Shown: piece after piece, positions 17,595 to 38,006 of the stretch
How positions within the stretch are numbered: the stretch's first letter is position 1
How the letters are laid out: every line of letters starts with the position of its first letter
Sequence record: PP541515.1
Origin: Escherichia phage PSK8
Length of the DNA: 44,592 bases
Strand: one strand, 5' to 3'
The notes under the pieces: model-generated
The model's input: the letters and a program-made list of their open reading frames with translations, nothing else
What the model was told of the DNA's origin: nothing
Databases searched by the model: none
Made by a program: the position numbers and the translations under genes

Positions 17595-17722
17595 GCCAAG
17601 AGAATAAGAGAAATAATAAGGATAATATAGGTTAACCTAGGTTATATAGGTATGCCTTAGTATGGGTGTACTCCTGTACACCCTATTCCTTCTTCCTTAC
17701 TATATTAACTACAATAGGAGAT

Positions 17723-18004
17723 ATGATGGCTAATGAGTACAGCAATCAGCCTTTAACAGGCCGGTACGACAGAAAACAAGTACAACCAGTTAGTGAACAC
17801 TTAATGGTCCCAAGTGTTAACTCTAACATTGACCTATACAACCCAGCAAAACAAGCCAGTGTTATCAATGATACCACAAAGTCTGGCAAGCAACTTGGGG
17901 CTATGCTTGTAACAGAAATGGGTGTCCTGATGCTAGCTCGTGGAAGTGAACCCACAAGCAAGTGGGACCAGACAAAGACAGCAGAGATTATTGTTCCAGC
18001 CTAA
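17723..18004 (+). CDS. Hypothetical protein, paralog 1 of a tandem triplicated family
   Basis: ATG with AGGAG RBS; shares SGKQxGAM and ARGxxPxSKWD motifs with the next two ORFs. Confidence 0.55.
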   Translation: MMANEYSNQPLTGRYDRKQVQPVSEHLMVPSVNSNIDLYNPAKQASVINDTTKSGKQLGAMLVTEMGVLMLARGSEPTSKWDQTKTAEIIVPA

Positions 18005-18019
18005 TAAGAGGAGAAAGAT

Positions 18020-18307
18020 ATGCCGAAGTATGGAGATGCAAGTACTGTAACAGGTCAATCCTTCCGTGTTAAAGATGTTCAAACTATTGCAACTGCACTG
18101 CCATTACCTGTTGTAGCAGAAGCAGACCTTAAATCTAAAGCGCATCCAATTAACATCCACCATCTTTCTGGTAAACAAAAAGGTGCCATGGTCGCAGTAC
18201 AGAAGGTAGATGGGTCGCTATATATCGCTGTGGCACGAGATGCACTGCCTGAGTCACCTTGGGATGCCACGACCATGAATGTTGATGCTGTTACCCCAGC
18301 GGAGTAA
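18020..18307 (+). CDS. Hypothetical protein, paralog 2
   Basis: GAGGAG RBS; motifs LSGKQKGAMVAV and ARDALPESPWD. Confidence 0.6.
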   Translation: MPKYGDASTVTGQSFRVKDVQTIATALPLPVVAEADLKSKAHPINIHHLSGKQKGAMVAVQKVDGSLYIAVARDALPESPWDATTMNVDAVTPAE

Positions 18308-18992
18308 TACTATCGTGTTAGGTATTACAGGACAACGAGGCGTAAGCCACCGAGCTAAGGTTGCCACGGAAGTGGCTCCTATCGTTGACATCTCAGAAGT
18401 ATCTGACGTTAACTCTTATCTAAACCAAAAGTACCTATCAGGTAAACAGGAAGGCTATATTGTTCTTGCTAAGAAAGGCTCACGTCATTCATTTTATGCT
18501 GCAACAGGTTCTAAGCCAGAAGACAAGTGGCTGCCTTTAGAGCAAGCAATCTTGCCTGATTCAAGTACGTTAGAGCTAATTGACACCATCAATACTAAAG
18601 TTGCAAGTGCAAGCGACACTGTAGAGGTTAATGTAACAAAAGAGAGAACTGTGTGCATCCAGACACCTATGAAAGACCTAGCAGGTGATACAGTTTACCG
18701 GCAAGAATTGACTGCCAACATTAACCTAACCCTTAATGAAAATGGAAGCCCTAGCGATACTGTTAAATTAAACATATCAATCCCTAATTTGCCAGGAACA
18801 TCTAGTGGGTCTTACTATACAGTTGACAATGTGCTGTGTACTGCTTTTGGAGAAGACAGCCCTGTTGTTGCTAATATAGATGTTGATAAGGCTACTACTA
18901 ACTTGATTGCTGTTACACTCCGTAAGGAGACGGCAACAGATATCAAGCTGTCTCTGGTAATTAGGTGGTCAATGCCAGTGGAGGTAGTATAG
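18279..18992 (+). CDS. Hypothetical protein, paralog 3 with C-terminal extension (start uncertain; GTG 18315 possible)
   Basis: N-terminal region has LSGKQEGYIVLA and GSKPEDKW matching paralogs 1 and 2. Confidence 0.5.
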   Translation: MLMLLPQRSNTIVLGITGQRGVSHRAKVATEVAPIVDISEVSDVNSYLNQKYLSGKQEGYIVLAKKGSRHSFYAATGSKPEDKWLPLEQAILPDSSTLELIDTINTKVASASDTVEVNVTKERTVCIQTPMKDLAGDTVYRQELTANINLTLNENGSPSDTVKLNISIPNLPGTSSGSYYTVDNVLCTAFGEDSPVVANIDVDKATTNLIAVTLRKETATDIKLSLVIRWSMPVEVV

Positions 18993-19336
18993 TGCTTAAC
19001 AAATATTTCAAGCGTAAAGAGTTCGCTTGCCGTTGTGGGTGTGGTACATCCACTGTTGATGCTGAGTTATTACAGGCAGTCACGGATGTGCGTGAGTACT
19101 TTGGTGTCCCTGTAGTTATCACCTCTGGGCATCGCTGTGCTAAGCACAATGCCAACGTAGGTGGAGCTAAGAACTCCATGCATCTTACTGGTAAGGCTGC
19201 TGACATCAAGGTTACAGGTGTCGGACCAATGGAGGTACGTGCATACCTATGTAATAAGTACCCTGATAAGTATGGCATTGGTGCTTATCCTACTTTTACC
19301 CATATCGACGTTAGGGATAACAAAGCACGATGGTAG
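18992..19336 (+). CDS. Endolysin, zinc peptidase M15 family
   Basis: GTG start after GGAGG RBS; motif SGHRCAKHN...HLTGKAADI typical of M15 peptidases. Confidence 0.75.
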   Translation: MLNKYFKRKEFACRCGCGTSTVDAELLQAVTDVREYFGVPVVITSGHRCAKHNANVGGAKNSMHLTGKAADIKVTGVGPMEVRAYLCNKYPDKYGIGAYPTFTHIDVRDNKARW

Positions 19337-19444
19337 GATGTGTTGAATGGTGTGAGCGCATGGTTGCTAAGGCAGCAGAGGCCGGCAACTATGAGGATTG
19401 GCAGAATTACTCTGACTTGTTAGCTCAATGGAAAGGGAGGTGCA

Positions 19445-19594
19445 ATGAAAAAGCTGTTTAAGTCTAAGAAGGTAGTAGGTGCACTGATTGCACTGGTAAT
19501 CGCTCTTGTTTCTGTAGGTCTTGGCGTAGACCTTGGTGAAGGTACGGAAGGTTCCGTCACCGACGTGGTGTGCCAAGTAATCACCTGTGAATAA
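19445..19594 (+). CDS. Small membrane protein (49 aa), lysis-associated candidate
   Basis: GGGAGG RBS; basic N-terminus then one hydrophobic helix; lies between endolysin and spanin candidates. Confidence 0.4.
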   Translation: MKKLFKSKKVVGALIALVIALVSVGLGVDLGEGTEGSVTDVVCQVITCE

Positions 19595-19808
19595 GGTGCT
19601 AGAGGTGGTGGCAGGTCTTATTGGCCTGCTGCTTGCCGCTAAGAAGAAGAAGGAAGAGAAGGAGGCACAAAGTGAGGCGAATCATGCTAGCGACAATCCT
19701 GCTGATTGGTTCGCTGACCACTTCAGGGTGTCAGACGGTGTCACCAGAGAGTCCAAAGGTGAAGCCACTGAAGCCAACGCTGACGGCAGTTTACGAGGTA
19801 GACGATAA
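19587..19808 (+). CDS. Candidate i-spanin (Rz-like), N-terminal TM helix
   Basis: GTG-initiated ORF with hydrophobic N-terminus then charged region; overlaps the lipoprotein ORF in another frame. Confidence 0.35.
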   Translation: MNKVLEVVAGLIGLLLAAKKKKEEKEAQSEANHASDNPADWFADHFRVSDGVTRESKGEATEANADGSLRGRR

Positions 19809-19881
19809 GGTCTGCTTCAGTAAGCCTGACGCTACAAAACTTGGTTTGTACATTCTTTCGCTAGAACGCGGATATAATTAA
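19684..19881 (+). CDS. Candidate o-spanin (Rz1-like outer-membrane lipoprotein)
   Basis: MLATILLIGSLTTSGC has a lipobox (TSG-C); short Pro-rich mature part; overlapping architecture. Confidence 0.55.
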   Translation: MLATILLIGSLTTSGCQTVSPESPKVKPLKPTLTAVYEVDDKVCFSKPDATKLGLYILSLERGYN

Positions 19882-19910
19882 TACATAGCTTTATGTATCA
19901 GTGTCTTATG

Positions 19911-19934
19911 ATTTACCGGACACTATAGAAGAGA
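19911..19934 (+). promoter_or_regulatory. SP6-like phage promoter (ATTTACCGGACACTATAGAAGAGA)
   Basis: Consensus match about 80 nt upstream of tailspike 1. Confidence 0.75.
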
Positions 19935-36708: not shown

Positions 36709-36717
36709 GTTATACTC

Positions 36718-36743
36718 AAGGTCACTTACGAGTGGCCTTTATG
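36718..36743 (+). other. RNA hairpin at DNAP 3' end / start of next gene
   Basis: AAGGTCACT-TACG-AGTGGCCTT 9-bp stem with one G-T wobble. Confidence 0.4.
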
Positions 36744-37028
36744 AATAACTTAAACGAGGCAAATACTATGATTAATTACACTGCTTATCAATTAACTAAA
36801 GATCGTAAGATAGGTGTTGAGGTTAAGGCTTGGAACGAAGGGCACATCACTGTAGTTATAGAATGTCGCCAAGATAATGGTATGATATTAAGAAGCTACC
36901 GTTGCTTCACCAAATTACGCTGCAAAGACTTAACTGAAGAATTGTTCTTACGTTGTATTGTTGAATCTATTAAACTTATTAGACCTTACGCTAAGCAAGT
37001 TGTAGGTAATGTCACAGTAGTACATTGA
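36741..37028 (+). CDS. Hypothetical protein (start uncertain; ATG 36777 alternative)
   Basis: ORF directly after DNAP. Confidence 0.45.
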   Translation: MNNLNEANTMINYTAYQLTKDRKIGVEVKAWNEGHITVVIECRQDNGMILRSYRCFTKLRCKDLTEELFLRCIVESIKLIRPYAKQVVGNVTVVH

Positions 37029-37029
37029 T

Positions 37030-37053
37030 TTACTGGACACTATAGAAGGAAAG
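37030..37053 (+). promoter_or_regulatory. SP6-like phage promoter (TTTACTGGACACTATAGAAGGAAAG)
   Basis: Consensus match. Confidence 0.75.
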
Positions 37054-37114
37054 CCTAGGTAATCTAGGTTTATAAGGTAGTATAGGTAATTAAGTAAATA
37101 TAGGAGATATAAAT

Positions 37115-37492
37115 ATGTCTATGGTAACTACTCTGGTATTCGTAGCTCAATACTTTCGTGGTCTGGCTAATAAGTTCAAGGCCAAGGCTATCAAAGCTAT
37201 TGAGTCTCGCATCGAGGCAGTACAGGCAGAGCAGGTTGAAGTTGAAGAACATCGCAGTTCTCAAATGATTGACTGCCATAACCGTTACTATGCATCTCGT
37301 GATGACCTGAATGCACGTCAAGTCAAAGAGGTTGAAGAGATGTTGGCACGTCACCAACAAGAACGTGACAATCTTAAAGCCGACTTCGAAGAGAACAAAG
37401 TATCCATTGCTCTTGTACATCAAGCTGCATCTGACAGTCTGAAGAAAGAGATTGTTATGCTGGAAATCGAACTTGATAACCTGACTAAGTAA
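37115..37492 (+). CDS. Hypothetical coiled-coil protein (125 aa)
   Basis: AGGAGA RBS; heptad-like charged sequence. Confidence 0.55.
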   Translation: MSMVTTLVFVAQYFRGLANKFKAKAIKAIESRIEAVQAEQVEVEEHRSSQMIDCHNRYYASRDDLNARQVKEVEEMLARHQQERDNLKADFEENKVSIALVHQAASDSLKKEIVMLEIELDNLTK

Positions 37493-37498
37493 GGAGTT

Positions 37499-37798
37499 AT
37501 GATGGAAGAAGTAATTCAAGCTAAACATGTTGGTATCATCTTTCGTGATTTAGAGCAACGTAAAGTTGCAGGTCACACTCGTCTAGCTAAAGAAGAAGAC
37601 ACAGAAATCACTACTGTGGAACAAGCAGATGCCTATCGTGGACCAGAGTTCACTCAAGGTGAAACCTGTCACCAATTGAGTTTGTCCCTCTGTGACACTA
37701 TGGCCAGTGTAAATGTGCAAGAAGTTGAAGACGGTGAGGTTGTTAGTTACGTCTACCCTCTAGATACTATTGCACGCATTAAAGTAATTCATAAATAA
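37499..37798 (+). CDS. Hypothetical protein (99 aa)
   Basis: AAGGAG RBS. Confidence 0.55.
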   Translation: MMEEVIQAKHVGIIFRDLEQRKVAGHTRLAKEEDTEITTVEQADAYRGPEFTQGETCHQLSLSLCDTMASVNVQEVEDGEVVSYVYPLDTIARIKVIHK

Positions 37799-37822
37799 TT
37801 ACTGGACACTATAGAACAATAG
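37799..37822 (+). promoter_or_regulatory. SP6-like phage promoter (ATTACTGGACACTATAGAACAATAGG)
   Basis: Consensus match; followed by a 180-nt structured leader. Confidence 0.7.
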
Positions 37823-38006
37823 GACGTGGGTTTGTCAGAGACAGTAAATCCAAGGTGCTCAGTGAGCGTAAAGCCTAAGCACGTCCTATGATTGTAAAGT
37901 GTTGAACCTTATGTGCATCTTGCACAACCCGATATTATATCGGGCTTTCTAGTGAGTACATGCTTGTGCTCAGTACAAAGCTAACTGACAATAGGAGACT
38001 AAATAA

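Follow-up and report, generated by a model that had tools for sequence, protein, structure and literature searches.

In bacteriophage T7, the R1.1 hairpin lies between the phage promoters phi1.1A (5848) and phi1.1B (5923), 5' of gene 1.1. Imperfect double-stranded RNA (dsRNA) of roughly two turns (about 20 bp) is the size cut by Escherichia coli RNase III, and an adjacent AT-rich region is a criterion for replication origins of the T7 type. RNase III processes T7 transcripts at specific sites (PMC6938266), and T7 replication starts at phi1.1A/phi1.1B or, after their deletion, at secondary origins, phiOR and phi6.5 among them, with a T7 promoter required at every origin and R-loop priming proposed (PMC8373140). 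Here we analyse the non-coding leaders that follow phage promoters in a 44,592-nt stretch of DNA from Escherichia phage PSK8 (PP541515.1; below, the window), a circularly permuted Vectrevirus genome (K1E/K1-5 group, Autographiviridae, Molineuxvirinae, relatives of SP6) that carries all genes on the + strand and shares ~90% identity with Escherichia phage mutPK1A2 and with other Vectrevirus genomes. We tentatively favour the view that these leaders are conserved cis-acting modules of SP6-like (Molineuxvirinae) phages which, by analogy with T7, would act mainly as RNA. Three of them also carry a tandem array of ~10-nt units, an element that is separate from the RNA hairpins and not explained by RNase III.

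Results

Phage promoters and the leaders behind them

The phage promoter pattern ACTGGACACTATAGRA was matched 11 times in the window against 0.9 expected, and the matches, with the transcription starts (+1) that they define, bear out the first-pass annotation of this DNA in its view that the four regions it had flagged, here named leaders A to D, are non-coding leaders behind phage promoters (Table 1). The flagged stretches mix three things: a repeat array (A–C), a long hairpin (B only) and a second family of leaders (D and a sister near 42200). Folding was expressed as z-scores of the real sequence relative to shuffled controls (200 shuffles where counts are given), with an arm-wise control in which the purine-rich and pyrimidine-rich parts were shuffled each on its own. 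Of the folding that had been proposed for all four leaders, that of B and D proved strong and specific, but A retained only an 8-bp GC hairpin and C was essentially unstructured. Rfam searches returned no family at the gathering threshold in the whole window and, at a permissive E-value with leaders A, B and D, only chance matches far below threshold (such as microRNA-precursor-like ones on both strands of B).

Leader B and the T7 R1.1 module

Judged by its position, leader B is the counterpart of T7 R1.1. As at R1.1 and the T7 primary origin, the RNA polymerase gene is followed by two phage promoters flanking an imperfect hairpin, in which the 5' arm is rich in purines and the 3' arm in pyrimidines, and then by gene 1.1 (MRNFEKMT...). 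The K1-5 and SP6 groups both keep the arrangement RNA polymerase gene–terminator–promoter–hairpin–promoter–gene 1.1. We detected no sequence homology to T7 R1.1; the 10-mer ACCTTCTTCC occurs in the 3' arm in both phages, which is weak evidence because there are three copies of it in the window. The two modules differ in the spacer between promoters (196 nt here versus 75 nt in T7) and in the helix, which is longer in this phage (21–31 bp) and made from the repeat array, in a module flanked by 16-bp palindromes. Moreover, an early terminator precedes the module here, whereas the T7 early terminator follows gene 1.3 and none lies at the position of the module.

The long imperfect inverted repeat that had been noticed at 29950–30000 is indeed present, with GGAAGTAATAGGTATT facing AATACCTATTACCTTC, and forms a helix whose length is 21 bp by the minimum-energy fold and ~31 bp by an alternative one. 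Leader B folded with a z of −2.6, and of −4.5 relative to arm-wise shuffles. A long imperfect helix of ~20–30 bp was seen in most of 11 B lineages (folds read by eye), and it surpassed arm-wise shuffles in 11 of 11 (z −1.9 to −4.8), with none of 200 shuffles as stable in six of these.

Leader D and its sister near 42200

Both leaders of the second family begin GAACAAWAGG and have a 5' hairpin followed by conserved GATTGTRTAGTG, with an apex that tolerates large insertions (D1 in leader D; also in the 42200-type leaders of relatives L013 and L022). Because GATTGTRTAGTG is complementary to the promoter core CACTATAG, RNA that reads through from upstream is predicted to form a helix of 19–20 bp in which the promoter is embedded, and of which promoter-initiated transcripts would keep only the inner hairpin. 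The read-through helix at 42193–42240 comprises 19 bp (−27.2 kcal/mol, z −4.5, 0/200 shuffles as stable) and that at 37803–37905 ~20 bp (z −3.3); in the outer helix of the latter, promoter core GACACUAUAGAACAA pairs with GAUUGUAAAGUGUU (37890–37903). Across 14 sequences of the 42200 helix, 98.8% of cells were paired, compared with 34–45% when the partners were slid, and five pairs had changed on both sides versus 1.0 ± 0.8 in shuffles, none of 500 shuffles reaching five. Most of these both-side changes belong to the inner hairpin; one, at promoter position −7 (CG/GU/UG), affects the outer helix.

Leader D as a whole folded with a z of −2.76 (0/200 shuffles as stable). Its second domain, D2, includes the hairpin CCCGATA-TTA-TATCGGG, which exists as the first-pass annotation described it but at 37928–37944 rather than 37940–37957; its 7-bp stem (4 GC) and tail CUUUCU are terminator-like, and the record of one relative lists it as a terminator. 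The long form of D1 occurs in only 10 phage records, the short form keeping the hairpin, and D2 is an accessory insert present in 41 of ~124 related records. Leader D has no match in E. coli genomes and is thus not host-derived.

The 268-aa product of the gene that leader D precedes (38007–38813, PHROG 862) has an acidic C-terminal tail whose last residue is aromatic (...EMDEDAEY), resembling that of the T7 single-stranded DNA-binding protein (SSB) gp2.5, in which case leader D would be the leader of an SSB gene.

Hairpins near +1

The stem-loops previously noted close to +1 at the promoters at 2826, 19915, 29879 and 42187 were all found (z −2.2, −4.1, −2.4 and −3.6 respectively), as were two further ones at 37032 (z −1.95) and 37801 (z −2.95), so that six of the 11 promoters have one; none was found at 15469, 17574, 30075, 32191 or 39078. 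The hairpins are conserved, and compensatory changes support several of them, among them that of the 42200 leader (the pair changes given above) and that of B, where one pair has four compensatory variants (CCGUC/GACGG, CCAUC/GAUGG, CCCUC/GAGGG and CCUUC/GAAGG). The hairpin of C shows, in relatives, changes in the loop and one-sided G-U/A-U/G-C changes. The hairpins start 3–11 nt into the transcript, only that of the transcript starting at 2839 doing so at +3 and the others at +6 to +11. They share with the 5' stabilising hairpins of T7 phi10 and ompA type their location within the first 3–11 nt of phage-polymerase transcripts and differ from them in that most leave 5–10 unpaired 5' nt and, in the D/42200 family, in an apex that tolerates large insertions. 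The T7/pET phi10 stem can also extend into the promoter TATAG, like those of the D/42200 family.

The leader at 19928–20030 hardly varies between K1-5-like and SP6-like phages despite differences in the genes downstream, a pattern that would fit a conserved cassette boundary for gene swapping.

A tandem WAGGWA array in leaders A, B and C

Enrichment in TATAGG and CCTAGG, proposed for all four leaders, held for A, B and C (P 1e-6 to 8e-9 for CCTAGG and TAGGT) but not for D, which has no TATAGG, CCTAGG or TAGGT. Leaders A–C, 360 nt in total, contain five of the 14 window copies of TATAGG (0.07 expected, P = 2e-8), 4/13 of CCTAGG (P = 1e-6) and 9/77 of TAGGT (P = 8e-9). These motifs are the units of a ~10-nt tandem array with AGG spaced at 9–11 nt, which had escaped the first-pass annotation, and the three longest runs of AGG at this spacing in the window are exactly those of A, B and C. 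The unit is roughly W-(A/C)-W-AGG-W-A-R-T, C being nearly excluded save just before AGG, and its core WAGGWA is kept while spacer positions vary (45 distinct array sequences). When 50-nt segments were compared, B had the highest purine content (0.88) and the lowest GC (0.20) of the window, together with one segment free of C (29912–29961); C likewise reached a GC of 0.20 and zero C, and A, with GC 0.24 and purine 0.80, was among the top five for purine content. Tandem Repeats Finder reported only B and C, weakly (period 9 and 5.9 copies with score 43, and period 9 with score 38, respectively), and nothing for the 8-unit array of relative L096.

SP6-like relatives have the array at these three positions too, with copy numbers of 4–8, its architecture being retained across genera at 50–75% sequence identity. 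In 1.44 Mb of related loci, four or more AGGs followed one another at this spacing in 68 runs, and 59 of these lie at most 60 nt downstream of a phage promoter and on the transcribed strand. The module terminator–palindrome–promoter–purine-rich spacer persists even in phages whose RNA polymerase is 41–50% identical. In the distant relative L032 the repeat has another unit (AGTAG) and no inverted arm is apparent by eye; it is therefore the array, rather than the hairpin, that looks conserved and, being kept in L032 without an apparent inverted partner, it is not explained by RNase III. We also considered array units as mimics of promoter specificity regions and rejected this, the units remaining TAGGT while the specificity regions differ among lineages.

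Leaders A and C

Leader A corresponds in placement to T7 phiOR, in that a phage promoter directly after the terminase large subunit gene, and ahead of a small gene, opens a non-coding leader of ~140–160 nt with a purine-rich start and then AT-rich sequence. T7 phiOR lies 99 nt after gene 19, and it differs from leader A in lacking a WAGGWA array, leader A being composed of array, GC hairpin and pyrimidine tract. Among relatives, the plan of A is conserved as promoter, purine-rich start, array (4–8 units at this position), GC hairpin, G-free pyrimidine tract (present in all relatives compared) and Shine-Dalgarno sequence. The perfect hairpin GGGTGTAC-TCCT-GTACACCC is present just as had been described, and its stem differs by lineage and always pairs (GGGAGGUA/UACCUCCC in SP6, GGGUACUCU/AGAGUACCC and GGGAC/GUCCC elsewhere). 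The whole leader folded with a z of −1.9; beyond the 8-bp GC hairpin, it folded no better than arm-wise shuffles in which that hairpin was kept (z about −1). In many minimum-energy folds a long-range stem closes a large loop that holds the array, next to the terminal hairpin.

The CCTTAGT that closes the A array also occurs elsewhere, in an array of (C)CTTAGT repeats at 24215–24340 with periods of ~12 and 23–24 nt. These repeats resemble the series beside the terminal repeats of T7 and adjoin a GC-rich region (23890–24200) that, by analogy with T7, we take to be the physical genome end.

Leader C had been counted among the structured leaders, which our data contradict: its whole-leader z is −0.66, 53 of 200 shuffles fold as well, and it contains just one 8-bp hairpin. 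No arm complementary to its array was found in the leader. The last unit of the array, which stays in phase up to it, is the Shine-Dalgarno sequence of a 125-aa gene (ATG at 37115).

Conservation relative to SP6

In a conservation profile against SP6, leaders A and B were 50–75% identical and had evolved no more slowly than the flanking genes. The high identity of C and D to SP6 belongs to the whole mosaic block 36600–38200 and is not a mark of leader-specific constraint. This block is mostly 80–100% identical to Salmonella phage SP6, compared with only 50–75% in the A and B regions, which suggests a recent exchange between Vectrevirus and Zindervirus. A 99-aa gene within it (37499–37798) is absent from SP6.

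A family of 16-bp palindromes

The palindrome GTCTCACATGTGAGAC that flanks the B module occurs in six copies (10993–11008, 29857–29872, 30050–30065, 32418–32433, 33816–33831 and 39043–39058), compared with 0.17 expected at three or fewer mismatches, and a degenerate copy lies at 30850. All six are located between major + strand open reading frames (ORFs), three of them just upstream of phage promoters and the other three at gene ends, where the stem is extended and a U-rich tail follows it. Relatives have other palindromes at the same places (GTCCAACGTGTTGGAC in SP6, GTCTACAACTGTAGAC in L047 and GTCTCACACGTGAGAC in L027), the sequence changing in step between lineages. Possible roles of the palindrome are those of an operator bound by a phage protein, of a terminator and of a 3'-end hairpin.

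The sequence GGGCAGAC(C/T)TAGGTT occurs twice, before the second B palindrome (30035–30049) and near the presumed genome end (23694–23708), and related (A)AGGG(C)TT sequences lie 5' of other palindrome copies. A reading of GATTGTATAGTG as an antisense promoter was discarded for its wrong +1 and its mismatches in the specificity region (judged by eye).

Table 1. Positions of the leaders and of the elements in and around them.
Feature	Position	Strand	Remarks
Leader A	17587–17722	+	directly 3' of terminase large subunit gene
Promoter of leader A	17574–17589	+	+1 at 17587; 3 nt 3' of terminase large subunit stop; T7 phiOR position
Purine-rich start and WAGGWA array of A	17587–17661	+	AGG at 17619, 17629, 17639, 17648, then CCTTAGT
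8-bp GC hairpin of A	17664–17683	+	GGGTGTAC-TCCT-GTACACCC
G-free pyrimidine tract and Shine-Dalgarno AGGAG of A	17684–17722	+	tract 17684–17706; ATG at 17723
Leader B	29892–30049	+	3' of RNA polymerase gene
Intrinsic terminator	29793–29814	+	after RNA polymerase gene; annotated as terminator in MK373771
16-bp perfect palindrome	29857–29872	.	GTCTCACATGTGAGAC; just 5' of first B promoter
First B promoter	29879–29894	+	+1 at 29892; T7 phi1.1A position
5' hairpin of B	29899–29911	+	CCGUC-GGA-GACGG; z −2.4
B array (purine arm)	29912–29989	+	AGG at 29920, 29931, 29949, 29959, 29968, 29977, 29987
Core of long imperfect hairpin of B	29948–30009	+	arms GGAAGTAATAGGTATT 29950–29965, AATACCTATTACCTTC 29990–30005
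Second, 9-bp hairpin of B	30008–30036	+	CCUUCCUCU...AGAGGAAGG; sole element found by RNAalifold
Second palindrome copy	30050–30065	.	5' of second B promoter
Second, deviant B promoter	30075–30090	+	CAGTATAG; +1 at 30088; T7 phi1.1B position
Gene 1.1 homologue	30119–30244	+	PF08200, E = 1e-15
Leader C	37045–37114	+	3' of DNA polymerase region
Promoter of leader C	37032–37047	+	+1 at 37045
8-bp 5' hairpin of C	37051–37071	+	AAGCCUAG-GUAAU-CUAGGUUU; z −1.95
C array	37047–37108	+	AGG at 37047, 37057, 37066, 37075, 37084, 37102
Leader D	37814–38006	+	5' of 268-aa gene
Promoter of leader D	37801–37816	+	+1 at 37814
D1, Y-shaped domain	37803–37905	+	closed by AUAGGACGUG/CACGUCCUAU (37819–37889)
D2, three hairpins	37913–37981	+	37913–37925; 37928–37944; 37944–37981 (~15 bp)
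42200 leader, sister of D	42193–42240	+	promoter core, 10-bp 5' hairpin and conserved GAUUGUAUAGUG; 19-bp read-through helix
5' hairpin	2842–2856	+	z −2.2; upstream of 400-aa ORF 2894–4096
5' hairpin	19938–19967	+	z −4.1; upstream of 650-aa ORF 19953–21905; nearly invariant in relatives

Discussion

From the anatomy, conservation, fold statistics and gene context of these leaders we infer a role for them in the stabilisation and RNase III cleavage of phage transcripts. The hairpins near +1 would give transcripts of the phage polymerase structured 5' ends, most likely slowing decay that depends on the 5' end, and three elements, the long hairpin of B and the helices of D and the 42200 leader, would offer about two turns of imperfect dsRNA. 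The D and 42200 helices would arise only on read-through from upstream, and cutting them would trim polycistronic RNAs at boundaries defined by promoters. As with T7 R1.1, the elements are intergenic and located at a phage promoter or just behind it, and ~20 bp of duplex is reached in B, at 42193–42240 and at 37803–37905. The proposal in the first-pass annotation of RNase III sites and stabilising 5' hairpins is thus plausible, by analogy with T7, for B, D, the 42200 leader and the +1 hairpins, but does not extend to C, finds no specific duplex in A and leaves the array unexplained. The array supplies the purine arm in B, finds no partner in C and has only composition-level pairing in A, by which alone A attains ~20 bp.

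Several observations weigh against such a role in RNA. Leader C, having no duplex, cannot be an RNase III site, and the pairing of purines with pyrimidines in A is one of composition, with no specific long duplex. For B, RNAalifold found no consensus for the long helix in 12 diverse spacers across genera; this lack of column-wise covariation arises because the arms pair in different registers between lineages, and single substitutions in the 5' arm are uncompensated within Vectrevirus. Comparison of G.U with A.C mismatches showed no bias to the transcribed strand (11 versus 17 in B, 7 versus 10 in A), and plus and minus strands folded about equally well, so that an inverted repeat at the level of DNA fits equally well. 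D1 and D2 are absent from most relatives, most pairs of the D/42200 outer helix are invariant because the promoter is constrained, and a protective role for the +1 hairpins is weakened by the 5–10 unpaired 5' nt that five of the six leave.

The array leaders may instead be transcription-primed replication origins of the T7 type, B being the primary origin and A and C secondary ones. We consider this less probable, yet a serious rival, because B and A hold the first two T7 origin positions (those of phi1.1A/1.1B and phiOR respectively). All three have phage promoters and an AT-rich neighbour (GC 0.20 for B and C, 0.24 for A), and the extremes of the window in purine, GC and absence of C fall in B and C, with A in the top five for purine. 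The array persists at its sites despite sequence turnover and changes in copy number, the module of promoter and purine-rich spacer is kept at 41–50% RNA polymerase identity (in L032, by eye, without an inverted arm), and its ~10-nt period matches the helical repeat of DNA, although slippage alone can give exact periodicity. GC skew also steps up at ~29.4–29.9 kb, at B, but this is the point of the switch from early to middle genes; moreover, C has no counterpart among T7 origins, and R-loop-prone sequences usually have G runs longer than GG. In an origin, an R-loop would persist, with the purine-rich RNA still paired to its pyrimidine template, or the AT-rich array would serve as an unwinding element; the RNA's 3' terminus would prime the phage DNA polymerase and the helicase-primase would load on the displaced strand. 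Such a function would be compatible with RNA processing, T7 R1.1 itself sitting between two primary-origin promoters. A more specific form, to which we give somewhat lower odds still, takes the C-free ~10-nt WAGGWA array as a distinct, undescribed cis element that marks the replication origins of SP6-like phages, the RNA hairpins being secondary: the promoter would fire into a purine- and AT-rich repeat, yielding a primer R-loop or serving as an unwinding element, and the B palindromes, whose sequences shift in step from lineage to lineage, may be bound by a phage factor.

Three other explanations of the arrays are possible and less likely than origin function. Their units could be weak Shine-Dalgarno-like sites (AGGU, UAAGG) holding 30S subunits on the leader, as standby sites that would raise translation of the gene downstream or as 5' stabilisers of the STAB-SD type: the real ribosome-binding sites, (A/T)A(T/A)AGGAG, are one change away from array units, the C array runs in phase into a true Shine-Dalgarno sequence, its last unit, and the arrays are poor in C, with the C leader predicted to be unstructured. 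This is nonetheless unlikely, given that a second promoter rather than a gene follows the B array, that a hairpin and pyrimidine tract part the A array from its Shine-Dalgarno sequence, that the 10-nt spacing is far below the 30S footprint, and that the downstream genes encode small proteins without assigned function and with no hint of a need for high expression, while no array precedes the 400-aa ORF at 2894–4096 (the putative major capsid gene, from its position in the structural block). Neutral low-complexity DNA, arising by replication slippage of a leader or ribosome-binding-site motif and tolerated because the leaders are non-coding, would account for copy numbers that differ among close relatives, for the low Tandem Repeats Finder scores (38–43, and none for the 8-unit array of L096) and for leaders that evolve no more slowly than the flanking genes. 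It appears improbable in view of the recurrence of the arrays at the same three gene contexts across genera despite 50–75% identity, their strict depletion of C and conserved core, and the preference of 59 of 68 runs for the first 60 nt behind a promoter, on the transcribed strand.

Least probable, in our judgement, are arrays that act as binding platforms, as DNA or RNA, for a phage or host factor. The kept WAGGWA core with variable spacers and the 4–8 copies per array at helical spacing would suit such a role; so would hairpins with U-rich tails 3' of the arrays and the A array often lying, in minimum-energy folds, in a large loop beside the terminal hairpin, and in one variant short non-coding RNAs ending at the GC hairpin (A) or the palindrome (B) might act as a CsrB-like sponge. 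Iteron or unwinding-element arrays and the sponges CsrB/RsmZ likewise have short motifs repeated 4–8 times at regular spacing and in variable copy number, but here the units are of ~10 nt, strictly on the transcribed strand and downstream of promoters, no partner or candidate binding protein was identified, and the core is AGGU/AGGA instead of the ANGGA-in-a-loop bound by CsrA. In addition, the U-rich tails are poor as terminators, and the stem closing the A loop does not exceed what its composition leads one to expect.

The leaders would thus be modules of promoter, processing site and origin in the style of T7, assembled from another repeat that is apparently unreported. The relatives' records that we inspected list only coding sequences and an occasional predicted terminator in these regions, and our literature search on SP6-like phages returned nothing about their RNase III sites, origins or leader repeats, the 2004 SP6 and SP6/K1-5 genome papers lying outside its scope, so that an earlier description is possible. 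In the SP6 branch, the array points to a counterpart, built in another way, of the T7 combination of promoter, processing hairpin and origin, which raises the question of whether the conserved part acts in RNA, as a processing arm, or in DNA, as an origin. K1E, K1-5 and SP6-type phages are used in phage therapy, in engineering and as a source of transcription tools; the conserved leaders tell engineers which cis elements to spare and are candidate parts themselves, as 5' stabilisers, processing sites or origin fragments.

Additional observations on related genomes

In some Vectrevirus genomes (L003, phage EEc2, at 941–1159, and similar records), gene 1.1 is separated from the primase/helicase gene by an additional gene of 219 nt, which accounts for the two-piece matches obtained in searches with leader B. 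The match to the terminase large subunit gene, upstream of leader A, extends over ~2641–2645 nt, versus 1899 nt, in L085, L094, L096, L097, L099, L101 and L102; these therefore have an insertion of ~745 nt within the gene, possibly an intron, an intein or a homing endonuclease.

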